Numbered from the stretch's first letter, positions 5,541 through 44,981 are shown. The stretch: 64,000 bases of DNA from Candidatus Zipacnadia bacterium (GCA_029821195.1 JALGTU010000001.1:8707-72706), one strand, 5' to 3'. Notes: a model not told the origin generated them from the sequence alone. Translations and numbers: made by a program.

Positions 5541-5811
5541 CTATACAACTCGCCCTGCGTTGTGCGTGATGTCGAAATAGCTTCGGGCCAACACCCAATT
5601 GAAGGGAGCCCGGCTCTGCGGGTGGCGTGACGTCCCTTCCGGGAGAACGCAAAGCCTGCAGGAGGGCACCCACTTATTTATTGGGTTCGAAGTCTTGCCG
5701 ACACACGGCATCTGCGGGGCGGTTATCTCTCCAGCATCTCGCTGGCGGCGAGCCAGACCAAGGCGGAAGCAGACTTCCCCAGGGGAAGAACGCTTGCGGG
5801 GTGACTTGCTT

Positions 5812-8840: not shown

Positions 8841-11513
8841 ATGACGACTCAGCAACTGAGAGAACTGTTCTTAAACTTCTTTGAAGAGCGGGGCCATCTG
8901 GTCCGGCCCAGCGCGCCACTGCTGCTGCACGACGATCCCACCAGCTTCTTTACCAGCGCAGGCATGCAACCGTACATGGGCGCGTTTCGCGGCCAAGAGG
9001 AGCCGCCCGCGCCCCGCGTGGTCAGCATCCAAAAATGCACCCGCACCGGGGACATCGAAGGCGTCGGCTACCTCAACCGCTATCACACCTTCTTTGAAAT
9101 GCTGGGCAACTTCTCGTTCGGCGATTACTTCAAGCAGGGCGGCATCGAGCTTGCCTGGGAGTTCGTCAGCGACGTGCTGGGGCTGCCGCTGGAGCGCCTG
9201 TGGTTCACCGTGTTCACCGAAGACGACGAGGCCGAAGAGATCTGGCACAAGCATATTGGCATCCCAATGGAGCGGCTGCGCCGGATCGGCCGGGAGGATA
9301 ACTGGTGGCCGAAGGTCCGCTGGGAGGGCCCCTGTGGCCCGTGCTCGGAGATATTCTACGACCTGGGTCCAGAGCGGGGATGTCCCGGCGGCTGCGAGGT
9401 GGGCTGCGAGCGGTGCGAGCGGTACCTCGAGCTGTGGAACCTGGTCTTCCAGATGTACACCGAAGCTGAGGACGGCACGCTGACGCCGCTGCCCCAACCC
9501 GGTATTGACACCGGTATGGGGCTGGAGCGCCTGGCCCTGGTGATGCAGAACAAGCGCTTTACCGCTGAGACTGATGAGCTTTTCCATATCCTGACCCGCA
9601 GTCTAGAGCAGATTAACCAGTTTCGCGACCAGCCCTATGAATATGGCCGGGATGAGGCGACTGACGTCGGCCTGCGGGTCATCGCCGACCATCTGCGCGC
9701 CACCGCTTTCCTGATGGCGGACGGCGTGGTGCCGTCCAATGAGGGGCCGGGATACGTCCTGCGCCGGCTGATTCGCCGCGGTTACCGCTTCGGCCAGCAA
9801 GCCGGCGCCCAGGGGCCGTTCCTGCATGAGGCCCTGCCCGCGGTGGCCGAAGCTATGGGCAGCGCCTATCCAGAGATCACGACCAACATAGATTACCAGC
9901 AGAAAGTCGTCCAGGCCGAAGAAGAGCGCTTTGCCTCCACGCTGGCGCAGGGCATTGATCTATTCGAAGAGATCGCCGACCAAATCCGCAAGAGCGGCGA
10001 AACCGTCATTCCGGGTGCGCAGGCGTTCCGGCTGCACGATACCCACGGCGTCACCATTGACATCACCCGCGACTTGGCCGCCGAAAAGGGTATGACCATA
10101 GACGAGGCTGGCTTCGAACGGGCCATGCAGGAGCAGCGCGAGCGCTCGCGCCGGCAGGCCCTTGGCGAGTATGGCAGTGGCTTGTCAAGCAGCTCGAGTT
10201 CAAGCAGCTCGAGTTCCTCTCGCCTATTGAAGAGCACTTTCGTTGGCTACAAGTTAGACATCACTGAAACGAAATTGCTGGGTATCTTGAAGGAAAATGA
10301 GGAGGTTCAGAGCGCTGGCGAAGGCGAGGAAGTCCAGGTAGTGCTCGAGGAGACGCCCTTTTACGCCGAGCGAGGCGGCCAGGTCGGTGACACGGGAGTA
10401 ATCGAGGGCCCCAACGGCCAATTCCAGGTTGACAATACCGTACCCAGAGCGAACGTGATATTGCACTCAGGCACAGTGACCGAGGGCGAAATCAACGAAG
10501 GCGAGAAGGTAGTTGCCCAGGTTGATGAGGAGCGCCGCAAGGCTATCCAGCGTCATCATACGGCTACTCACCTGCTCCAGGCAGCGCTGCGCCAGTTCCT
10601 GGGCGACCACGTACGCCAGTCGGGCTCGCTGGTCGCTCCGGACCGCCTGCGCTTCGACTTCACCCACCACGAGGCGATTGGCGACGAGACCCTCGAACAG
10701 ATCGAAGACCAGGTCAACGCCTGGATACTGGCCGACCTGCCAGTAGTATGCAGCGAAGAATCACTGGACGAAGCCAAGAACAAGGGGATAATCGCCCTGT
10801 TCGGGGAGAAATACGACGACGTAGTGCGGGTAGTGCGAGTCGGCGAGGTTAGCGCGGAGCTATGCGGTGGCACGCACTGCGCGCGTAGCGGCGAGATCGG
10901 CCTGCTCCGTATAACCAGCGAAAGCAGTATCGCCGCCGGTATTCGCCGGATCGAAGCAGTCGCCGGCCACGCTGCCTTTAACCGCAGCCGCGCACTGGAG
11001 AAGATTCTCACCACGGCAGCGCATGAGCTTAACTGTCCTCCCGAGGAGCTGCCCACGCGCCTGGCCGGGCTCCAGCAGCAGATTTCCGAGATAGAAAAGC
11101 AGTTGCAGCAGGCCCGGCGGATGCAGGCTATCACGAATATCCCTGAGATCATTGAGGGGACCGTGCCAATCGGCCCGGCGAACCTGATCACGGCCCGCAT
11201 TGAGCAGGCCGACGACGAAACCCTCGGCAGTCTCGCGGACCAGCTTGCTGCGACGACTCCCGACAGCATTGTGTACCTGGCGGGTATCAAAGGTGACAGC
11301 ACAACGCTGGCAGTAAAGGTTAGCGAGCACTTGATCCCTCAGGGCTACCATGCTGGGGATATTATGGCGGCTACGGCTCCGTTGGCTGACGGTGGTGGTG
11401 GCGGCGGTCCTAGCTTTGCCCGCGGCGGGGGCAAAGCCAGCCAGCTCGACGAGGCCTTTGCAGGTCTGCGCCGTTATCTTGAAGAACAAGCAAGTCAAGA
11501 GGATTCCGAGTAA
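8841..11513 (+). CDS. alaS: Alanine--tRNA ligase.
   Basis: 890 aa carrying the class II AlaRS motifs (FTSAGMQPY, FEMLGNFSFGDY, WNLVFMQY), the editing-domain HxxxH, and a C-terminal DHHA1 domain. Confidence 0.95.
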   Translation: MTTQQLRELFLNFFEERGHLVRPSAPLLLHDDPTSFFTSAGMQPYMGAFRGQEEPPAPRVVSIQKCTRTGDIEGVGYLNRYHTFFEMLGNFSFGDYFKQGGIELAWEFVSDVLGLPLERLWFTVFTEDDEAEEIWHKHIGIPMERLRRIGREDNWWPKVRWEGPCGPCSEIFYDLGPERGCPGGCEVGCERCERYLELWNLVFQMYTEAEDGTLTPLPQPGIDTGMGLERLALVMQNKRFTAETDELFHILTRSLEQINQFRDQPYEYGRDEATDVGLRVIADHLRATAFLMADGVVPSNEGPGYVLRRLIRRGYRFGQQAGAQGPFLHEALPAVAEAMGSAYPEITTNIDYQQKVVQAEEERFASTLAQGIDLFEEIADQIRKSGETVIPGAQAFRLHDTHGVTIDITRDLAAEKGMTIDEAGFERAMQEQRERSRRQALGEYGSGLSSSSSSSSSSSSRLLKSTFVGYKLDITETKLLGILKENEEVQSAGEGEEVQVVLEETPFYAERGGQVGDTGVIEGPNGQFQVDNTVPRANVILHSGTVTEGEINEGEKVVAQVDEERRKAIQRHHTATHLLQAALRQFLGDHVRQSGSLVAPDRLRFDFTHHEAIGDETLEQIEDQVNAWILADLPVVCSEESLDEAKNKGIIALFGEKYDDVVRVVRVGEVSAELCGGTHCARSGEIGLLRITSESSIAAGIRRIEAVAGHAAFNRSRALEKILTTAAHELNCPPEELPTRLAGLQQQISEIEKQLQQARRMQAITNIPEIIEGTVPIGPANLITARIEQADDETLGSLADQLAATTPDSIVYLAGIKGDSTTLAVKVSEHLIPQGYHAGDIMAATAPLADGGGGGGPSFARGGGKASQLDEAFAGLRRYLEEQASQEDSE
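10185..10220 (+). repeat. Tandem 15-nt repeat (TCAAGCAGCTCGAGT x2, plus TCCTCT) encoding a 12-residue poly-Ser tract inside alaS.
   Basis: Direct reading of 10185..10220. The protein context is GSGLSSSSSSSSSSSSRLL, in the linker before the editing domain. Confidence 0.85.
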
Positions 11514-12989: not shown

Positions 12990-13559
12990 TTGCTAGAGCG
13001 ATTCTGTCCCGACGAAATCGTACGCCGCCTGGAGAACATTGACCAGCAGGCCCTGCTTGACCGAGGGATCAAGGGGCTGCTCATTGACGTGGACAATACT
13101 CTGGTCAACTGGCGGGGTCATCACATACCCAAGCAGCGGGTCGCGTGGCTCAACAGAGCCAAGGACAACTTCGCAATCTGCCTGCTGAGCAACAGCATTA
13201 CCGCGCGCCGATTGCGACACCTGGGCAAAGTCCTGGCGCTGCCCTATGTCGGCCGCTGGGGTTGGGGCCGCAAGCCCTTTGGTGGCGGCTACCGCGAAGC
13301 CATGCGACAGACCGGCGTAGCTCCCGCCGAAACCGCGATGATCGGCGATCAGCTTCTCACCGACATCTTCGGGGGCAATCGCCTGGGTATGCACACCATC
13401 TTGGTGCATACCCTCAGCGATGCGGAGTTCTTTATCACCCGCGTCAACCGGTGGATAGAGGCCATAATCAGAGGACGGTTGGTCCGGCGGGGCACCTGGC
13501 CTCCGCTCACGGGCTGCGAAATGATCCCAGAAGCGGAGCCAGGCCATGCCTCGGAATAG
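12990..13559 (+). CDS. YqeG-family HAD-IIIA phosphatase.
   Basis: DVDNTLV (HAD motif I), LLSNS, IGDQLLTD. TTG start. Sits in the conserved position upstream of aroE. Confidence 0.8.
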   Translation: MLERFCPDEIVRRLENIDQQALLDRGIKGLLIDVDNTLVNWRGHHIPKQRVAWLNRAKDNFAICLLSNSITARRLRHLGKVLALPYVGRWGWGRKPFGGGYREAMRQTGVAPAETAMIGDQLLTDIFGGNRLGMHTILVHTLSDAEFFITRVNRWIEAIIRGRLVRRGTWPPLTGCEMIPEAEPGHASE

Positions 13560-33515: not shown

Positions 33516-33737
33516 TCAGCCGGCTAGCGTCTGGCGAATTCGCTCCACAATCTTCTCGACCGAAGGCAGATTCTCTTCTTCCAGCGGTGCAGCCATTGGC
33601 GGCGGGACATTGTGCGCCGCCACGATCTTTATCGGGGCGACCAGGTCTGCAAAGACCTGCTGCTGGACCTGGTAGGCAATGTGCTCGCCGAAACAGCCGC
33701 GCTCGGTCAGGACGCTGGTGTCGGGACAGCCTGGAAA
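33516..33737 (-). pseudogene. 3'-terminal fragment (~73 codons) of a paralogue of the E1 alpha/beta dehydrogenase gene at 35995..38271. No usable start codon.
   Basis: Minus-strand translation gives *FPGCPDTSVLTERGCFGEHIAYQVQQQVFADLVAPIKIVAAHNVPPPMAAPLEEENLPSVEKIVERIRQTLAG*. This is near-identical to the C-terminus of the intact E1 gene (...ERGCFGEHIAYQVQQQVFADLAAPIKIVAAHNVPPPMAAPLEEENLPSVEKIMGNIRQTVGR*). Confidence 0.8.
33571..33706. repeat. Direct repeat copy A (~136 bp, ~93% identical to 36050..36186).
   Basis: Direct comparison of the two segments. Both are in the same orientation and bracket the secretin gene. Confidence 0.85.
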
Positions 33738-35656
33738 TCAAGCAAGGCACCCAGGTCCTGCCCGGTGGGCAGAATCGTCGAATAGACCAGCAGGACGCTC
33801 TCGTGATGAACTATCAGTGGGCTGCGCCCGAAGCGAAACATCTCGCCCAGCACCGGCAACTGCCCCAGCACTGGCACGGAGGACTTAGCCCGCGGCTGGG
33901 TGGTGCGCAACATCATACTAGATAGGGAGAAAAGGTCCAGGGCGTTCACGTAGACGCTGGTACTAGCCGTGTGCTCGGCCACGCGGCTTAGCGGTGCCGT
34001 CGTAGGCTCCTCGACCCCTTCCACTGTCACTTCGGCATCCTTATGCGCGACCGTGACCGCAACCTGCAATTCTGCGGCCGCCCCCCCTGGCAAGATATGC
34101 GGGGTGAAAGTAAGCTCAGTTCCCTCCGTCATAGAACCCCAGACCCGGGGCTCGTCTGCAGTGCGCAGCGACTCGGCCAGCGTGACCAACGGCATGACGG
34201 GCAGCTCGCCCTGGGCCACCGCGACCGGCTGCTCCTCCTCGGGCGGGGCGTTCAGTTCGAAGTAGCTGCGGGCGCTGCCCGTGACCGTGGCCTGGGTGCC
34301 GCCCAGCACCACGATGCTGGTGGAGCTGGTGGAAGCCAACCCGGATTGCCCGCTGCTCCCGGCGATGGCGCGCAACCGGTCGAGTAGTGGGCGCAGGAAG
34401 ATGGCCTCCACGTCTGCGGCCAGCGCGCGTTCTGCGGCCTGCAAGACGACATCCACGTCGGCGGCACGCCGGCTCAGCCGGTCCGGGGCCAGCGCACGCC
34501 AGTCACGAGCTTGTGTCCGGGAATCCAGGAGGAAGTTGCCGATGGTTTGCTGGGTGAGCTTGAGGTACGCGGCATCATCGAATATGTGCAGCAAGGTCCC
34601 GGGCAGTAGGGGTGTGACGCTGGCCTCCTGGCTATCGGGGGGGCCCTCTTGTGATGCCATAATAGTATTGCTTAACAGCGTAGAAAGCTCAGTGGCTGGC
34701 ACGGTTGACTTGGTGTCTACCAGGCTGCGCCATACAGCCAACGCGGCCGGGTCCTGGCGCGACAGCCCGTCCAGCCAGCGGCCCAGCGACTGGCTCAGGT
34801 GCTGCTCGAGAGTCTGGCGCCAGCTCAGGCCTCCCGCCGGCGGCATCATGAGCAGCGTAGCCAGTGTCTCCGTGAGCGAAAGGGGGTGCGGACCCCGGGC
34901 GGAGGGCGTGATGAGAATGGTGCTCTGCCCCGGCAGCAGGTCGCCCAGGTCCACGACATTCATTTTGATTGAAAAGCACGGCTCAGTATCGCTGGCCTCG
35001 TCGTCCCGTGAGGTGCTCGCCTGCTGTTGGGCTTTCTCTGCTCTCTCCTGATTGTGCTGTTGGGAGGCCCGGGCGCAGGCTTCCAGTTGGCGCAGATAGC
35101 CGCGCATGAGATCGCCCACTGTCCGAACTGTCTCCCGCGCCTCCTGCGCTCGCCCGGCGACAACTTGCGCATCGCCACCGCTGATCTGAAAGGTCCACAG
35201 GTCGAGGCGGACCTGCGGCTGAGGGACGTCAATGGTGGCGATGACCCGCTTGAGGTCGTCCACCTGCGAACGCGGACCGGCTAGCACCACCAGCGGAGTC
35301 AGGCTTAAGCCCTCGCTGGCCGCTACGTTGACGTCCGGTGCCAGGGCTGCCTTTACCGGTTCCAGCAGCCTCTGCAGTGCCCGCGGTTCGCGCACATAGT
35401 GCAAGCGGACTGTCTCGCAGACCGGGGAATCATCAACCTCGGAGGAGACAGGTACCAGTATATCCGGGGTCTCACCGATAATGGTCACTGGCCTTGGCGG
35501 CATTGGCATTGCTTCCCCGCCAACTATGGCCCCAACACCTGGCTGCTCCGCAGCGGCCTCCTCCTGGGCAAGAGCTGGCATTACCACGGCCACCAGCAGG
35601 CCAATGCTCATACACAGCAATACAACACGGAAGTGAGTTAGTCTACTGCGCTTCAT
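33707..35656 (-). CDS. Secretin (GspD/PilQ family outer-membrane channel).
   Basis: Signal peptide. The C-terminal secretin signature is VPVLGQLPVLGEMFRFGRSPLIVHHESVLLVYSTIL, and the N-domain resembles Secretin_N. GAGGAGG RBS lies 7 nt upstream. Confidence 0.8.
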   Translation of the reverse strand: MKRSRLTHFRVVLLCMSIGLLVAVVMPALAQEEAAAEQPGVGAIVGGEAMPMPPRPVTIIGETPDILVPVSSEVDDSPVCETVRLHYVREPRALQRLLEPVKAALAPDVNVAASEGLSLTPLVVLAGPRSQVDDLKRVIATIDVPQPQVRLDLWTFQISGGDAQVVAGRAQEARETVRTVGDLMRGYLRQLEACARASQQHNQERAEKAQQQASTSRDDEASDTEPCFSIKMNVVDLGDLLPGQSTILITPSARGPHPLSLTETLATLLMMPPAGGLSWRQTLEQHLSQSLGRWLDGLSRQDPAALAVWRSLVDTKSTVPATELSTLLSNTIMASQEGPPDSQEASVTPLLPGTLLHIFDDAAYLKLTQQTIGNFLLDSRTQARDWRALAPDRLSRRAADVDVVLQAAERALAADVEAIFLRPLLDRLRAIAGSSGQSGLASTSSTSIVVLGGTQATVTGSARSYFELNAPPEEEQPVAVAQGELPVMPLVTLAESLRTADEPRVWGSMTEGTELTFTPHILPGGAAAELQVAVTVAHKDAEVTVEGVEEPTTAPLSRVAEHTASTSVYVNALDLFSLSSMMLRTTQPRAKSSVPVLGQLPVLGEMFRFGRSPLIVHHESVLLVYSTILPTGQDLGALLDFQAVPTPAS

Positions 35657-35994: not shown

Positions 35995-38271
35995 CTAACG
36001 GCCCACGGTCTGGCGGATATTGCCCATAATCTTTTCAACCGAGGGTAGGTTCTCTTCTTCCAGCGGCGCGGCCATTGGCGGCGGGACATTGTGCGCCGCC
36101 ACGATCTTTATCGGCGCGGCAAGGTCGGCAAAGACCTGCTGCTGGACCTGGTAGGCAATATGCTCGCCGAAACAGCCGCGCTCGGGAGCCTGCTGGACGA
36201 CAACCAAGTGCCCGGTCTTGCGCACCGATGCGGCGATGGTGTCCACGTCCAGGGGCACCAGCGTGCGCGGGTCAACCACCTCGACCGAGATGTCATCCTC
36301 AGCTAGCTTCTCAGCAGCCTCCATGGCCCGGTAGTAGAGCCAACTGTAAGCCACTACCGTGCAGTCGGTGCCTTCTCGGGCCACGCGAGCTACCCCTATC
36401 GGCACAGTATACTCCTCGTTGGGCACCTCCCCGCGCTCGGTCAGCGCGTGCTGGTGCTCGATATAAATCACCGGGTTATCGTCGCGGATGGCCGATTTGA
36501 TGAGGCCTTTGGCATCGTACGCTGTCGCCGGCGCTACGACCTTCAGGCCCGGGAACATCGTCACGACCGCCTCCAGGCTCTGCGAGTGCTGGCCGGCATA
36601 GCCGCGGCCGCCGCCAACCGAGGTGCGAATGACCAAGGGGATCTTGGCCTTACCGCCGAACATATAACGATTCTTGGCGGCCTGGTTGCCGACCTGGTCC
36701 ATCGCCATTAGAATGAAATCAATGTACATCAACTCGACGACGGGCCGCAGCCCGACCATCGCCGCCCCGACCCCCGTACCAACAATGGCCGCTTCAGAGA
36801 TAGCAGCATTGAAGATGCGCTCACGGCCGAATATGTCAATAATGCCCCGGGTAACCCCAAAAGCACCACCGTAATCAGCGACATCCTCGCCGTACAGGAT
36901 AACGCGCCGGTCGCGCAGCATCTCTTCGACCAGCCCCTCATTAACCGCATGCCGGTACAGAATCGTCCTCGCGCCCTTCCCACCGCGCTTCCGGACCTTC
37001 TTCAACAGCTTCTCTTCCGGCGTCGCCCATTGCGGATCCAACTTGTCGCTGGTCGTATCGGCGAACAGGCCATCGTAGATATCCCTGGGATCAGGATCGG
37101 TGGCATTGCCTGCGAAAATAGCTGCGTCGTGGATGCGCTGGGCCGCTGCGCTCTCCTGCGCCTTCAGTTCTTCCTGCGTGGCCACACCGTGCGCCAGAAG
37201 CTGTGCCCGGAACTGCCCGAGCGGGTCGCAATCATGCCACATCTGCTCCTCTTCTTTGCTGCGATAGCTCTCGCGGGTATCGGACAGCGAGTGGCCCATA
37301 TAACGATAAGTGTGGCATTCGAGCATCACCGGGCCCCGGCCACTGCGACATAGCTCAGCAGCTCGGCGCACCGCATCGTGCACCGCCAGCACATCCATGC
37401 CAGTTACGCCCTCAGCGTGCATGTTGACGTCATTGTAGCCCGCACCGCGCTGCGCCAGATACTTGACCCCGGTCACCTCACCCTGCTGCTGACCGGTCAT
37501 ACCATACTGATTGTTCTCGATAAGATAGATCACCGGCGTGCCCTTCTTAAACTGCGCCATCGCCGCGAAATTGTACGATTCGTGGGCAATACCGTTGTTG
37601 GCCGCGCCGTCGCCGACCATACACAGCACCAGCCGGTCGGTGCCCTGCTTCTGGCAGCCCATCGCCGCACCGGTTGCTATTGCGTAAGAGCCGCCGACAA
37701 TGGCGTTGGCGCCGAGGTGTCCGGCGTGGAAGTCAGCAATGTGCATTCCCCCACCACGACCTCGGCAGTAGCCTTCTTCCTTGCCGAAGAGCTCGGCCAT
37801 CGTACGGTTGAGATGCTCCTGGAGTGCCAAACTCCACAGCTCCTCGGCGCTGGCCCCGGCGACCTCTCGGCCAATGAACTCCGCCAGTTGCTCGGGCGGC
37901 TGCCCGCGTAGCCAGTAGATGCCCTTGGCGATCGAGTGACCGTGGCCGCGGTGCGTACTGGTGATGTAGTCGTCGGGCCGGATCGCTGACATCGCCCCGA
38001 CAGCAACCGCCTCCTGTCCCAGCGATAGATGTGTAGCTCCGATGAACTTGAAACCGGGCAGCGGCGCGAACTTGCCACCCTTTAGCTGCACGATCATCTG
38101 CTCAAACTCGCGGATGAGCAGCATACATTCATACAGACCCAACGCCTCTGCGGCGGTCATCCCCCGGGCTAGCTCGTCCCCCAGATCACCCTGGTAGGTA
38201 AACAGCGGCACCGGCGGGAACGTGATCTCCTGGGGTGTGAAGATAGGACGAACGTCAATGTCTTTAGGCAT
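35995..38271 (-). CDS. Fused alpha/beta E1 component of a 2-oxoacid (pyruvate/acetoin-type) dehydrogenase, TPP-dependent.
   Basis: The N-terminal half carries the E1-alpha TPP motif (GDGAANNG..N). The C-terminal half is E1-beta / transketolase-C-like. GGAGG RBS. Confidence 0.85.
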   Translation of the reverse strand: MPKDIDVRPIFTPQEITFPPVPLFTYQGDLGDELARGMTAAEALGLYECMLLIREFEQMIVQLKGGKFAPLPGFKFIGATHLSLGQEAVAVGAMSAIRPDDYITSTHRGHGHSIAKGIYWLRGQPPEQLAEFIGREVAGASAEELWSLALQEHLNRTMAELFGKEEGYCRGRGGGMHIADFHAGHLGANAIVGGSYAIATGAAMGCQKQGTDRLVLCMVGDGAANNGIAHESYNFAAMAQFKKGTPVIYLIENNQYGMTGQQQGEVTGVKYLAQRGAGYNDVNMHAEGVTGMDVLAVHDAVRRAAELCRSGRGPVMLECHTYRYMGHSLSDTRESYRSKEEEQMWHDCDPLGQFRAQLLAHGVATQEELKAQESAAAQRIHDAAIFAGNATDPDPRDIYDGLFADTTSDKLDPQWATPEEKLLKKVRKRGGKGARTILYRHAVNEGLVEEMLRDRRVILYGEDVADYGGAFGVTRGIIDIFGRERIFNAAISEAAIVGTGVGAAMVGLRPVVELMYIDFILMAMDQVGNQAAKNRYMFGGKAKIPLVIRTSVGGGRGYAGQHSQSLEAVVTMFPGLKVVAPATAYDAKGLIKSAIRDDNPVIYIEHQHALTERGEVPNEEYTVPIGVARVAREGTDCTVVAYSWLYYRAMEAAEKLAEDDISVEVVDPRTLVPLDVDTIAASVRKTGHLVVVQQAPERGCFGEHIAYQVQQQVFADLAAPIKIVAAHNVPPPMAAPLEEENLPSVEKIMGNIRQTVGR
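36050..36186. repeat. Direct repeat copy B (3' end of the intact E1 gene).
   Basis: See copy A. Confidence 0.85.
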
Positions 38272-38463: not shown

Positions 38464-39813
38464 TCAATCGCCGTCGGTGGCGGGCGCAGCGCGATCCAGC
38501 CTCCGCCGCAGATTGACGGCGCCGCACCGGGTAGTCTCATCTGCGCTGCGCTCGATAGACTCGGCAATCGAGGTCAGACGAGGGAGAATATCCCGGCATA
38601 CCGGCTCGGTCGCTGCCCAAGCCGGCAGCTTATTCCAGAAGTCACAGGCCTGCGCCGCCAGGCTTAGCGCCTCCGCAGGCTTCTCTTCGATTTGTAGCAG
38701 CCAGGCCATAGCGGTGTGCGCGTATACACAAGCCAGTTCATCGCCCGCCCGCTGGACCCGAAATACCAGGCGAGCCCGGTCCGTCTTATCCTGCTCGAGC
38801 AGGTGCAGCGCCACTACGCCGCCCGCCAGTGCGTTGCGACTGCCGCCGGCGAGCGCCTGGGTCATATAGCGAAACGCGCTCTCGTGCTCCCCGGCCAGGA
38901 CCATTATCCGACCCGCCGTCTCCAGGACATTGAGACTAGTAGGATCGTGATCAACCGCCTGGTGGGCACCGGCGACGGCCGCGGACCAATCGTCCGCCCG
39001 TGCTGCAACCTCGCAGCCCAGCAGCAGCCCGCCAGCCGAGCCAGGGTCGAGGGAGTCCAGCTTATCTATCGCCCATTGCGCACAGGCCGTATTGTCTTCG
39101 TCTAGACTGTGCTGGGCAACAATCCGCCAGCCGCGCGGCAGCATACTCTCCGGGAGCACTGCCAGCAGCCGTTCCGCCTCCCCGCGCTTGCCGATTTTAG
39201 CCAGATAGTAGCCAAATTCCAGCAGCATCCCCGTATTGCGGGGGCGCTTGGCCAGACTACCGCGAACAGTCGCCTTGTCCACCCAGCCCTGTTGGCCAAG
39301 CAGGGCCAGCGACATTATCAACCGCAGGTCCGGCGTGGCGAGCCCGTACTCGGCCGCCCGTTTCATGGCGTTCTCCGCCAGCGGGAAGCGTCCGGTTCGC
39401 AGGTACGACCAGCCCAGCGCCGACCAGTACTGCTGCTCGTGTCTGGGACGTTCGATGTCCTGGCCGAGTTGCTCCAAGGCACCGATAGCCTGATCGTAAC
39501 GACCGGCCATAGTCAGCGCTACCGCCCAGTCCAGGTGCACGGTTTCGTCGTCGGGGGCAACGCGGTGGGCACGATGCAGCAGTTTCAGCGCTTCGTCCGT
39601 AGCGCCAGCAGAGAACATCCGCAGGCCCCGGAGGTAGTCACGATACGCCCGCATCCGCAAGTTGTTGGGCTGCATGCGGACTGCACCGCCCAGCAGCGGG
39701 CGCGCCACGCCCCGGCCGATCGGGCCCAAGGCCAGCGCCGCTTGCGCCAACCCATACAACAGCCAGCCAATAGCCCACTTCAGTACAACCAGCAGAAGCG
39801 CCAGCCTCATCAC
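38464..39813 (-). CDS. TPR-repeat protein with an N-terminal membrane anchor.
   Basis: N-terminal TM segment followed by repeated TPR-like helical pairs. Confidence 0.6.
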   Translation of the reverse strand: MMRLALLLVVLKWAIGWLLYGLAQAALALGPIGRGVARPLLGGAVRMQPNNLRMRAYRDYLRGLRMFSAGATDEALKLLHRAHRVAPDDETVHLDWAVALTMAGRYDQAIGALEQLGQDIERPRHEQQYWSALGWSYLRTGRFPLAENAMKRAAEYGLATPDLRLIMSLALLGQQGWVDKATVRGSLAKRPRNTGMLLEFGYYLAKIGKRGEAERLLAVLPESMLPRGWRIVAQHSLDEDNTACAQWAIDKLDSLDPGSAGGLLLGCEVAARADDWSAAVAGAHQAVDHDPTSLNVLETAGRIMVLAGEHESAFRYMTQALAGGSRNALAGGVVALHLLEQDKTDRARLVFRVQRAGDELACVYAHTAMAWLLQIEEKPAEALSLAAQACDFWNKLPAWAATEPVCRDILPRLTSIAESIERSADETTRCGAVNLRRRLDRAAPATDGD

Positions 39814-39816
39814 GGC

Positions 39817-40368
39817 TCAGCCCAAATCTGCGTCTCGCGGGAATATGCTGCCTCCGTGTAGATCGTAAGCCACCAACACGGGCAGCCCCACTACCACCAA
39901 CCTGCGAATCGCCTCCGGACCGAGTTCCGGATAGGCGACCATCTCAGCTTCAGTCACAAACGAGGAAAGCAGGGCACCGGCTCCGCCCGTAGCCACCAGG
40001 TATAGGCAGCCGTACTCCCGGCAGGCCTCGCGCACCTCCCGGGAGCGCTGGCCCTTGCCGATAGTGGCTCGCACCCCCGCCGCATACAGCCGGGGCGCGA
40101 AGGCGTCCATCCGCGAACTCGTAGTCGGCCCGGCTGCTCCCAGCGGTCGCCCCGGAGGCGCGGGAGTAGGACCGCAGTAGTATATGACCGCCCCGTCTAG
40201 CTCGATTGCCAGCCCCTCTGCCCCATCGAGCGCTGTGACCAGCCGCTGGTGCGCAGCATCGCGCGCGGTGTAGACGACGCCAGTCAGTTCTACGGCATCC
40301 CCGGCGTGCAGGTCACCGATAACCTCGGCGGTCAGCGGCAACTGGATTTGCTTGGCGTCCAAGGACAA
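39817..40368 (-). CDS. Class I fumarate hydratase / L(+)-tartrate dehydratase beta subunit.
   Basis: ...LPLTAEVIGDLHAGDAVELTGVVYTARDAAHQRL... is the beta-subunit signature. The ORF-track N-terminal 128 aa is a GC-artefact extension. Proposed TTG start at 40368, after GGGAGG. Confidence 0.7.
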   Translation of the reverse strand: MSLDAKQIQLPLTAEVIGDLHAGDAVELTGVVYTARDAAHQRLVTALDGAEGLAIELDGAVIYYCGPTPAPPGRPLGAAGPTTSSRMDAFAPRLYAAGVRATIGKGQRSREVREACREYGCLYLVATGGAGALLSSFVTEAEMVAYPELGPEAIRRLVVVGLPVLVAYDLHGGSIFPRDADLG

Positions 40369-40388: not shown

Positions 40389-41234
40389 CTAAAGCGCCGC
40401 CGTGCCGTGTCGGGCGGCGTGGCACTGCACGTTCAGCGCGACCGGCAGACTGGCGATATGGCACGGATGGCTGAGCACGTGCACCGCCAGCGCCGTATCG
40501 GCGCCGCCCAGCCCCATCGGCCCCACACCCGTCGCATTGACCGCGGCCAGAATCTCCTGCTCCAGGTCGGCCAGCTCGGGGACCTCGCTGGGCTGACCCA
40601 GGGGCCGGAAAAGCGCTTCTTTGGCGAGCAGGGCCGCCTTTTCGAGATCGCCGCCGATCCCCACCCCCAGAATCAACGGCGGGCAAGGTTTGCCCCCCGC
40701 CTCTTGAATGCGCTCGGCAATCGCCTCGACGACGCGCTTCTTCCCAGCGGTCGGCGTGAGCATCCACAGCGCGCTCATATTCTCGCTACCGCCGCCTTTG
40801 GCCGCCAGGTGCAGCCGCAACTGATCGCCCGGCACCACACGCAGATGCACGATCGCCGGTGTGTTGTCGCCGGTATTAGTATCGCGCTTCAGCGGATTGG
40901 CCACCACCGATGGTCGCAGGTAGCCTTCGCGATATCCCTGACGAACCCCAGCGTCAATGGCCGCATATACATCGTCCCCGACCAGGTGAACCTCCTGGCC
41001 CATTTCGACGAAGACTACTACCAACCCGGTGTCCTGGCAATAGGGGATGCGCTCCTCGCGCGCCAGGCGAGCATTGTCCAGGAGCTGATCCAGAACCAAC
41101 CGGGCGACGTCGCTCGTCGCACTCTCACGGATGCGGCGCAGCGCCGCTACCACCTCTGCGGGCAACTCGAAGTTGATCCGCTGGCATAGCTCAGCGACCG
41201 CTTCAGTTATCTGTGACGACTCAATTTCGCGCAT
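40389..41234 (-). CDS. Class I fumarate hydratase / tartrate dehydratase alpha subunit (Fe-S hydro-lyase).
   Basis: CQDTG motif and Cys ligands of the [4Fe-4S] hydro-lyase alpha domain. Confidence 0.85.
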   Translation of the reverse strand: MREIESSQITEAVAELCQRINFELPAEVVAALRRIRESATSDVARLVLDQLLDNARLAREERIPYCQDTGLVVVFVEMGQEVHLVGDDVYAAIDAGVRQGYREGYLRPSVVANPLKRDTNTGDNTPAIVHLRVVPGDQLRLHLAAKGGGSENMSALWMLTPTAGKKRVVEAIAERIQEAGGKPCPPLILGVGIGGDLEKAALLAKEALFRPLGQPSEVPELADLEQEILAAVNATGVGPMGLGGADTALAVHVLSHPCHIASLPVALNVQCHAARHGTAAL

Positions 41235-42993: not shown

Positions 42994-44646
42994 CTACTCC
43001 ATCACTGCGCCGGATGCGGCGCTGGTGACATTCTTAGCGTAGCGCGCCAGCCAGCCGGTCTTGATCTTCGGCTCCGGCGGCTGCCAGTCAGCGCGGCGCC
43101 GCTCCAATTCCCCTTCCTCTACCAGCAGCTCCAGCCGCCGCTCGTCCAGGTTTACCTCGATCTCGTCGCCGTCCTGGACCAGGGCCAGCAGGCCACCCGC
43201 TGCGGCTTCCGGCGAGATATGCCCGATGCATAGGCCCCTGGTTCCACCAGAGAAGCGGCCATCGGTCAGCAGCCCGACCGTCTCGGCCTTGCCCATTCCC
43301 GCTAGCGCCGCGGTCGGATTCAGACCCTCGCGCATCCCCGGTCCACCCTGGGGGCCCTCGTAGCGGATGATTATCCATGAGCCGTCGGCGATCTCGTCGG
43401 CCAGAATCGAGGCCATAGCGGCCTCCTCGCGGTCGAAACAGGCCGCCTGGCCCCGGAACGTGCGCATCTTCTCCGAGACCGCCGACTGCTTTATCACCGC
43501 CCCATCGGAGCAGAGATTGCCCCGCAGCACCGCAATCCCGCCTTCCGGCGCGTAAGCTTTGTCCACAGAACGGATAACATCGTTGTCAACGACGCGGCCC
43601 TCGGCGGCGATTTCCTTGATTGACTTGCCGCTGACGGTGGGGTTATCGTCGAGCATATCACTGAGCACCGACAGGACCGCCGGAATGCCGCCAGCCCAGT
43701 CGAGGTCCTCCATCATATACTCACCGCCCGGTCGCAGCGAGCAGATCTGCGGCGTGGCCTGGCTGATCTGGTCAAAGACCTCCAGCTCGATATCCACGCC
43801 CGCCTCGTGGGCGATGGCCGGGATGTGCAGGCAGGTATTGGTCGAGCCGCCCATCGCCATATCAATGCGGATGGCGTTGCGGACAGACGACTCGGTGATA
43901 ATCTGGCGCGTGGTGATGTCGTGATTCACCAGCTCCATAATACGCTCGCCGCTATCGTAGGCGAAGCGCTCGCGCTTGGCTGAGCCGGCCAGCGCTGTCG
44001 CCGAACCGGCCAGGCTCATGCCCATCGCCTCGGTCACGCAGGCCATCGTATTGGCCGTGTATAGCCCCTGACAGGAGCCCTGGCCCGGGCAGGCCTCTAT
44101 CTCCAGTGCTGCGACATCGTCTTCAGTAATCTCGCCCGCCTGGGCGCGACCAATTGCCTCGAACGTATCGCGCACCAGTGAGAGCCTCCGGCCCTCGTAC
44201 CGGCCGGACATCATTGGCCCAGCCGTGACCACAATTGCCGGAATGTCCAGCCGCCCGGCCGCCATCAACATGCCCGGAGTGATCTTGTCGCAGTCGGTCA
44301 GCAATACCAGCCCGTCCAGCGCATGGGCCAGCGCCATTGACTCGACAATATCAGCAATCAGCTCGCGCGAGGGCAGGGAGTAGAACATACCCAGGTGCCC
44401 CATCGCTACACCATCGCAGATCGCCGGCACGCCGAAGTTGAGCGGCACTCCGCCTCCGGCGGCAATACCTAGCTCAACCGCGCGCTGGAGCCGGCGCATC
44501 CCGATATGCCCCGGTACCAGGTCCGAAAAGCTGTTGGCGATGCCAATAAACGGCTTGTCCAGTTGCTCGCGGGTTATCCCGCAAGCATGAATCAACGCCC
44601 GCGCCCCCGCTCGCTCCAGTCCTTTTTTCGCTCGATCACTGCGCAT
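42994..44646 (-). CDS. ilvD: Dihydroxy-acid dehydratase.
   Basis: [30 protein letters not shown]. Confidence 0.9.
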
Positions 44647-44946
44647 AACGACACCTCTTTCCAGTTGCCATTGAATGCAAAAAGCCTCTCATCCCCATTG
44701 GGACGAGAGGCCGATATAAAGCAACTCCCGCGGTACCACCCAAGTTCCCCGCCGTAGCCTTGGCGAAGGCGGGACTCTCTGACGCTGTAACGGGCGCATC
44801 CCGGTTCCGCTTACTGAATTCGGCGGAACAGCTCAAGGGCGACGTTCTGCGGACCGAGGCGCCGGCACTTTCACCTTACCACCGGCTCGCTGTAGCCTCC
44901 GCTCCCCGCATACTCCTCCCCATCACAGCCAATATCACACAACTTT
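44647..44946 (-). promoter_or_regulatory. T-box riboswitch leader of ilvD-ilvB, candidate Val (GUC) specifier.
   Basis: On the minus-strand RNA: a K-turn-like GUGAUGG; a Stem I distal hairpin GCCGG-UGGUAAGGUGAAAGU-GCCGGC; a specifier-loop AGAAC-GUC-G; F-box CCGUUA (+44788..44793); the T-box UGGGUGGUACCGCGGG (+44727..44742); and a terminator GCCUCUC-N14-GAGAGGC followed by UUUUU (+44679..44711) immediately before the ilvD ATG. Confidence 0.8.
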
Positions 44947-44952
44947 GAGTTG

Positions 44953-44981
44953 AGTATACCCCAACCCGCCTGATCTGTCAA
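44953..44981 (-). promoter_or_regulatory. Consensus sigma70 promoter TTGACA-N17-TATACT driving the T-box leader.
   Basis: -35 at +44976..44981 (rc) and -10 at +44953..44958 (rc). Confidence 0.65.

Follow-up and report, generated by a model that had tools for sequence, protein, structure and literature searches.

A branched-chain amino acid gene cluster and its leader region lie on the minus strand of the window, by which we mean the whole 64-kb stretch of DNA (64,000 nucleotides) that was analysed. The cluster starts with ilvD, followed by ilvB, two genes encoding the alpha and beta subunits of a class I (Fe-S) fumarate hydratase and one encoding a TPR-repeat protein, and is preceded by a promoter, a T-box leader and an intrinsic terminator (Table 1). 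All the T-box elements named in a first-pass annotation of this DNA were found on the minus strand within positions 44981-44647.

Table 1. Genes and leader elements of the ilvD cluster, with positions counted from the first nucleotide of the window
Feature	Position	Strand	Details and basis
Sigma-70-type promoter	44953..44981	-	-35 TTGACA 44981-44976, 17-nt spacer, -10 TATACT 44958-44953; 11/12 consensus matches
T-box leader RNA	44696..44935	-	RF00230 full-length match
Stem I	44831..44929	-	Covariance-model alignment and covariation in 12 leaders
Stem I basal GA/K-turn region	within 44831..44929	-	GCUGUGAU...UGAGC
Stem I lower helix		-	GGGG/CCCU; CCCU directly after the specifier loop 3' strand, then UGAGC
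Specifier loop 5' strand	44917-44911	-	AGGAGUA
Specifier loop 3' strand	44847-44840	-	GAACGUCG
Specifier codon	44841..44843	-	GUC (Val), then unpaired purine G at 44840, then lower helix
AG bulge	44893-44886	-	ACAGCGAG
Stem I distal loop	44880-44867	-	GGUAAGGUGAAAGU
Stem II with S-turn motif	44804..44829	-	GAA ... AGUA; covariance-model alignment, one non-standard pair
Stem IIA/B region with F-box	44788..44803	-	F-box CCGUUA 44793-44788; covariance-model alignment
Stem III	44747..44775	-	Covariance-model alignment; 5' flank purine-rich AGAGAG, 3' flank AA
T-box sequence and antiterminator helix	44698..44746	-	T-box sequence AACUUGGGUGGUACCGCGGGAG at 44746-44725
Intrinsic terminator	44679..44712	-	GGCCUCUCGUCCC-AAUG-GGGAUGAGAGGCU then UUUU; 13-bp stem, 4-nt loop
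Ribosome-binding site	44652..44659	-	AAGAGGUG, 5 nt before ilvD ATG, read from sequence
ilvD, dihydroxy-acid dehydratase, 550 aa (first regulated gene)	42994..44646	-	NF002068 756 bits (cutoff 644); TIGR00110 712 bits (cutoff 618)
ilvB, acetolactate synthase large subunit, 566 aa	41254..42954	-	TIGR00118 783 bits (cutoff 538); 39 nt after ilvD
Class I (Fe-S) fumarate hydratase alpha subunit	40389-41234	-	NF004885 375 bits (cutoff 276); JGI gene call; 19-nt gap after ilvB
Class I (Fe-S) fumarate hydratase beta subunit	39817-40368	-	TIGR00723 153 bits (cutoff 145); JGI gene call; 20-nt gap after alpha
TPR-repeat protein	38464..39813	-	Weak TPR family matches; 3 nt after fumarase beta

Since the gaps between the genes are short and no terminator-like site was predicted on the same strand from ilvD to the end of the TPR gene, co-transcription of the five genes (ilvD, ilvB, fumarase alpha, fumarase beta and TPR) is likely. 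The fumarase and TPR genes probably share the ilvD-ilvB transcript, and the TPR gene is possibly the last one of the transcription unit, given the 192-nt gap beyond it. Searches by tblastn revealed no homologs of ilvN, ilvC, ilvE or leuC in the 64-kb window. The pairing of ilvD and ilvB without ilvN or ilvC had been called slightly unusual, which holds within the window, but the same pairing recurs in the relatives L162, L164, L166 and L167, in which the two genes are directly adjacent and ilvN is absent. In all six of the lineage relatives (L162-L167) ilvD and ilvB are found in one cluster, with two unrelated genes separating them in L163 and an unannotated 138-aa gene between them in L165, where ilvN and ilvC then follow. 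Among the relatives, the fumarase and TPR tail was found only in the closest one, L162 (86% IlvD identity), with the same gene order.

Additional open reading frames were observed around these clusters. A 758-aa ORF fusing pyruvate/2-oxoacid dehydrogenase E1 alpha and E1 beta domains is located at 35995-38271 on the minus strand of the window, and an E1 alpha/E1 beta fusion gene also lies after the TPR gene in L162. L163 (5520-5879), L164 (5505-5864) and L167 (5455-5913) each have a small extra ORF that separates ilvD from the terminator of the Val T-box and would, in these relatives, be the first of the genes controlled by the T-box; it encodes a 119-aa PF05635 protein (23S rRNA intervening-sequence / bAvd four-helix-bundle family) in L163 and L164 and an unannotated protein of 152 aa in L167.

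The covariance model RF00230 of Rfam, proposed as a check in the first-pass annotation, was searched against the window and matched 44935-44696 on the minus strand over model positions 1-219 of 219, with 122.2 bits against a gathering score of 93 and an E value of 1.4e-26. A single non-standard pair, within Stem II, was flagged in the alignment. The alignment takes in the basal GA/K-turn, the AGUA/GAA S-turn specifier loop, the AG bulge and the distal loop of Stem I, as well as the S-turn of Stem II, Stem IIA/B with the F-box, and Stem III. The flanks of Stem III fit the RRRNG-Stem III-AA motif described previously (PMC7778990), and within the region of Stem IIA/B the loop GCGC could pair with GCGU downstream, which would give the pseudoknot. 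The AG bulge has AGCGA in place of the consensus AGAGA in the window and in the three closest T-box relatives (L162, L163 and L164), while AGAGA is retained in more distant relatives. A rerun of RF00230 at E <= 0.001 gave no second T-box in the 64-kb window. A 6S RNA (RF00013) was recorded at 5549-5724 on the plus strand, with 86.8 bits against a gathering score of 46.4.

Leaders for comparison were collected in two ways. L082, L093 and L130, together with the Leu and Ile T-boxes L040, L035 and L056, came from IlvD pattern scans of genome and metagenome collections, and L162-L167 came from an IlvD protein search followed by contig look-ups. The pattern scans returned mostly relatives at 45-67% identity from unrelated phyla, without a T-box upstream of ilvD, and missed the true close relatives, which the word-indexed protein search recovered. 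A regular expression for the T-box sequence motif was used as a pre-filter only, and its several false positives in coding regions were ignored.

Twelve aligned Stem I sequences were then scored against the structure taken from the Rfam alignment. Standard pairs made up 92.9% of the cells, compared with 38-54% when the 3' partners were slid by 1-3 columns, a percentage that is inflated relative to the slid controls because the structure was derived from one of the aligned sequences, whereas the compensatory counts are unaffected by this. Compensatory changes, i.e. changes on both sides, were found in 12 of the 21 pairs in these leaders, and the covariation score was 0.396 against 0.184 +/- 0.022 in shuffles, none of 500 shuffles scoring as high. 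The lower helix, below the specifier loop, was 100% paired with two compensatory pairs, and five of the six pairs in the upper helix, above the loop, were compensatory; one of the compensatory pairs of the lower helix, at alignment columns 18/99, is C-G instead of G-C in L130, and this change fixes the boundary between helix and specifier loop. Minimum-free-energy folding of the whole leader gave no significant gain in stability over shuffles (z = -1.24) and a non-native pairing of the specifier loop, so thermodynamics alone gives the structure no support. Weak whole-leader free-energy signals are usual among T-boxes. As whole-leader folding was of no use for determining the register, the comparison of leaders was used instead.

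The TTGACA-N17-TATACT promoter named in the first-pass annotation was confirmed, at 11 of 12 consensus positions, by a simple consensus scan that gave one promoter-like site in the region and a mean of 0.3 such sites in its shuffles. A sigma-70 promoter with 10-12 of 12 matches was found at an equal offset in nine leaders, the -35 element starting 46-50 nt before the first model position and the flanks being otherwise unconserved. Transcription in the window would start near 44946.

When folded alone, the antiterminator segment formed the canonical bulged helix, with the 7-nt bulge UGGUACC (44738-44732) unpaired, at -14.6 kcal/mol. UGGU (44738-44735) would pair with the 3' end ACCA of the tRNA by analogy with known T-boxes, and its presence in the bulge implies discriminator A73. 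Bacterial tRNA-Val carries A73. The terminator scan predicted a hairpin of 13 pairs at 44712-44683 followed by a T-run; it folded at -25.5 kcal/mol, against -14.6 for the antiterminator, and its 5' arm CUCUCGUCCC doubles as the 3' arm of the antiterminator, so that the two helices are mutually exclusive. Because the terminator is the more stable of the two, the default state would be OFF and the antiterminator must be stabilised by something. The terminator and U-run reported earlier ahead of ilvD are present, but the distance to the ATG at 44646 is 32 nt and not 30 nt. All eight Val-specifier relatives whose downstream sequence was checked have a hairpin that overlaps the antiterminator in its 3' half and then a U-rich tract, which is interrupted in some of them.

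The arrangement of these helices bears on whether the switch acts on transcription or translation. T-boxes outside Firmicutes are sometimes translational, according to work cited in PMC7778990, and the leader might therefore be read as an element that sequesters the ribosome-binding site without termination, as in the actinobacterial ileS T-boxes. Here, the ribosome-binding site (44659-44652) lies 20 nt beyond the terminator hairpin and outside its pairing, and is thus not sequestered, which argues for transcriptional and not translational control. Furthermore, the alternative helix is a 13-bp GC-rich hairpin with a U-run, a feature shared with all eight relatives mentioned above, and Stem I is of full length with distal loop and AG bulge, accompanied by Stems II and IIA/B, whereas translational T-boxes have been described with a shorter Stem I (PMC7778990). 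We consider the translational reading very improbable.

It might also be supposed that the leader is a decaying relic and that ilvD-ilvB is constitutive or otherwise controlled. The leader is known here from its sequence, its AG bulge is off consensus, and three of the 11 Val leaders (L093, L130 and L165) gave no covariance-model match immediately before ilvD that exceeded the gathering score, L093 scoring 90.8 bits and L165 77.6 bits, and the T-box of L130 being located before ilvE. Against this, all modules are intact, the helices are maintained by compensatory changes, and the specifier, T-box bulge and terminator were conserved while IlvD diverged to about 70% identity or lower, so that decay has very little chance of being the right explanation and we retain that of a functional transcriptional T-box.

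The GUC (Val) register of the specifier loop, which had been given as tentative, was fixed by the comparison of leaders together with the specifier rule of TBDB. All eleven ilvD-operon leaders end the loop on its 3' side with GUC and a purine (G or A), over a range of IlvD identity from 86% down to about 51%, whereas between GAA and GUC they have C, G, U, A or AU. On its 3' strand the loop reads GAA-C-GUC-G in the window, L162, L167, L093 and L130, GAA-C-GUC-A in L164, GAA-G-GUC-G in L082, CAA-U-GUC-G in L163, GAA-A-GUC-G in L166 and GAA-AU-GUC-G in L165. With its spacer of two nucleotides, L165 shows that the position of the codon is set from the loop's 3' end. TBDB takes as the specifier nucleotides 2-4 of the Stem I bulge, counted back from its 3' end (PMC7778990), which gives GUC here, and GUC accounts for 29% of the Val specifiers in that database, in line with a preference for C at the third position (PMC7778990). 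The GUC-G at 44843-44840 obeys this rule with its unpaired purine, and it matches the valine-making ilvD and ilvB genes. The same register was found in the T-boxes of other ilv operons, with CUC in L040 (GAA-G-CUC-G) and L035 (GAA-CUC-G) and AUC in Bacillus cereus L056 (GAA-U-AUC-A).

The alternative CGU register, in which the triplet immediately following the loop's GAA would be an Arg codon and the switch would sense tRNA-Arg, can appeal to T-boxes with 7-nt loops that have the codon right after GAA (such as L035) and to the UGGU bulge (discriminator A), which also suits many tRNA-Arg species, but we reject it as having a practically negligible probability, since the triplet after GAA is incoherent across the orthologous leaders (CGU, GGU, UGU, AGU and AUG, i.e. 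Arg, Gly, Cys, Ser and Met, for one operon), the invariant GUC before the last purine, the L165 spacer and the TBDB rule all oppose it, and an Arg signal would be physiologically senseless for ilvD-ilvB.

Two of the T-boxes with other specifiers were located on ilvD-first operons, namely the CUC (Leu) T-box at 5726-5942 of L040, on an Atrimonadaceae chromosome, and the AUC (Ile) T-box at 5652-5897 of L056, from Bacillus cereus. In L040, ilvD is followed by a 564-aa ORF and further ORFs, unannotated here, the sizes of which fit ilvB, ilvN and ilvC. No tRNA-Val was found in the 64-kb window, where a tRNA-Pro(CGG) at 2770-2847 on the plus strand is the only tRNA, nor in any retrieved relative locus; a near-identical tRNA-Pro(CGG) is present at 13304-13381 on the minus strand of L164.

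On the basis of the sequence and structure elements, the covariation in Stem I, the register of the specifier, the competition between helices and the identities of the genes, all of which were computed here, we hold with high confidence that the element is a canonical class I (transcriptional) T-box riboswitch for tRNA-Val(GAC), which would control read-through into ilvD-ilvB. Within this explanation, the binding of the tRNA, the sensing of its charge, the read-through and how far the operon extends are taken from the established T-box mechanism. The earlier claim of a complete T-box with a Val (GUC) specifier over ilvD-ilvB was thus borne out by the covariance model, the register comparison and the assignments of ilvD and ilvB.

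The strong sigma-70 promoter would drive a leader of about 300 nt, in which the specifier loop of Stem I would offer GUC to the anticodon of tRNA-Val while the distal loop and the AG bulge would dock the elbow of the tRNA. If the tRNA-Val is uncharged, its free 3' ACCA would pair with the UGGU of the 7-nt T-box bulge, the weaker antiterminator would be stabilised by this pairing, and RNA polymerase would read through into ilvD-ilvB and probably further into the fumarase alpha, fumarase beta and TPR genes. With charged tRNA-Val, the more stable terminator would form and transcription would halt 32 nt before ilvD.

The mechanism, the Val specificity and the ilvDB target are all previously known for T-boxes, and our understanding of T-boxes is unchanged by this element. 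For annotation, a firm regulatory assignment is provided for an operon of an uncultured lineage, in which limitation for valine, signalled through tRNA-Val(GAC), would switch on ilvD and ilvB, and eleven orthologous leaders are supplied, by the comparison of which the specifier register was fixed. Points of minor interest are this comparative proof of the register, the conservation within the lineage and the fumarase and TPR genes packed behind ilvB. Aminoacyl-tRNA synthetase genes were also inspected for T-boxes: alaS of the window (8841-11513, plus strand) has none at E <= 0.001, and serS of L164 (405-1685, minus strand) has none at the gathering score. In the loci examined, T-box control in this lineage concerns the biosynthetic operon and not the synthetase genes alaS and serS.

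As for the host, the named relatives of AlaS, at 50-57% identity, belonged nearly all to Armatimonadota and in two cases to candidate division WS1, and those of IlvD, at 68-74% identity, were Armatimonadota, Armatimonadia and WS1, the closest IlvD relatives reaching up to 96% identity. Both Armatimonadota and WS1 are placed in kingdom Bacillati (Terrabacteria) in the NCBI taxonomy. These sequence comparisons point to an Armatimonadota / candidate division WS1-like, diderm lineage within Bacillati, which should not be taken as a firm phylum call. The first-pass annotation had regarded a T-box in a genome with lpxC, a secretin and pseudopilins as phylogenetically informative; the direction of this remark, towards Terrabacteria, is right, but the surprise was overstated because T-boxes are already known outside Firmicutes, including in Geobacter (PMC2494555). 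In the present study, T-boxes were also seen in an Atrimonadaceae genome and a 'Deltaproteobacteria' MAG. The secretin fits the diderm placement, but the match is weak: the 649-aa protein at 33707-35656 (minus strand) gave only C-terminal matches to GspD/SctC/PilQ, with E about 1e-8 and far below the cutoffs, and is a putative divergent secretin-like outer-membrane protein. The placement also fits the pseudopilins noted earlier. The gene upstream of the L082 T-box encodes a DUF1559 protein with an N-terminal methylation motif.

Several known systems resemble this one. In the RegPrecise-based survey of Sun et al. (2013), the Val column lists 'valS; ilvDB' for Clostridium phytofermentans ISDg, and further Val T-boxes are given for ilvBH1 in C. 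beijerinckii and ilvB1H2E1 in C. scindens (PMC3766115, Additional file 2). The ilvDB T-box of C. phytofermentans shares with that of the window the RNA family, the Val specificity, the pair of ilvD followed by ilvB and the lack of ilvN and ilvC in the unit, a likeness drawn from the published listing. It differs in that its host is a monoderm Firmicute (Lachnospiraceae), whereas that of the window is an Armatimonadota/WS1-like diderm, and in that the cluster of the window runs on into the fumarase and TPR genes. IlvD of the window shares no more than about 45-50% identity with that of Firmicutes, which makes a recent transfer of the operon from Firmicutes unlikely.

The ilv-leu operon (ilvBHC-leuABCD) of Bacillus subtilis is likewise controlled by a transcriptional T-box with competing antiterminator and terminator, and likewise concerns acetolactate synthase and branched-chain synthesis, but it is a 7-gene operon with ilvH, ilvC and leu genes and its specifier is CUC (Leu) (Marta et al. 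1996, as cited in PMC2494555), whereas the unit of the window has GUC (Val) and starts at ilvD. With glyQS and tyrS of B. subtilis, the mechanistic and structural archetypes, the element has in common the architecture of Stem I, the UGGN bulge and the overlap of terminator and antiterminator; like tyrS it has Stems II and IIA/B, whereas glyQS lacks Stem II. The glyQS and tyrS T-boxes control aminoacyl-tRNA synthetase genes, unlike the situation in the window, where alaS is without one. The Leu T-boxes on leuA of Geobacter and Pelobacter (PMC2494555) are also found in diderm, LPS-bearing hosts and on a branched-chain amino acid gene, but they belong to another phylum, with a Leu specifier and another target, and were interpreted as isolated, in contrast to the lineage-wide conservation observed here.

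T-boxes were recorded by Wels et al. in Firmicutes, Actinobacteria, Chloroflexi, Deinococcus-Thermus and two delta-proteobacteria (PMC2494555), and the phyla listed by Sun et al. are the same (PMC3766115). A full-text literature search for T-boxes together with Armatimonadetes returned nothing, although Rfam or TBDB may already contain such matches. The present leaders add Armatimonadota/WS1-like bacteria to the hosts of T-boxes on branched-chain amino acid genes, beyond these older surveys (PMC2494555, PMC3766115), and within the Armatimonadota/WS1-like set the T-box is kept across leaders whose IlvD differ by up to about 30%. As a tentative and rather doubtful proposal, the Val T-box of ilvD-ilvB might be old and vertically inherited in the diderm, LPS-bearing Armatimonadota/WS1, and in the sub-lineage of the window the switch might also have extended the valine-starvation regulon to a class I fumarase and a TPR protein. 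If true, such vertical inheritance would be a data point for T-boxes predating Firmicutes, and against their spread from Firmicutes by transfer.
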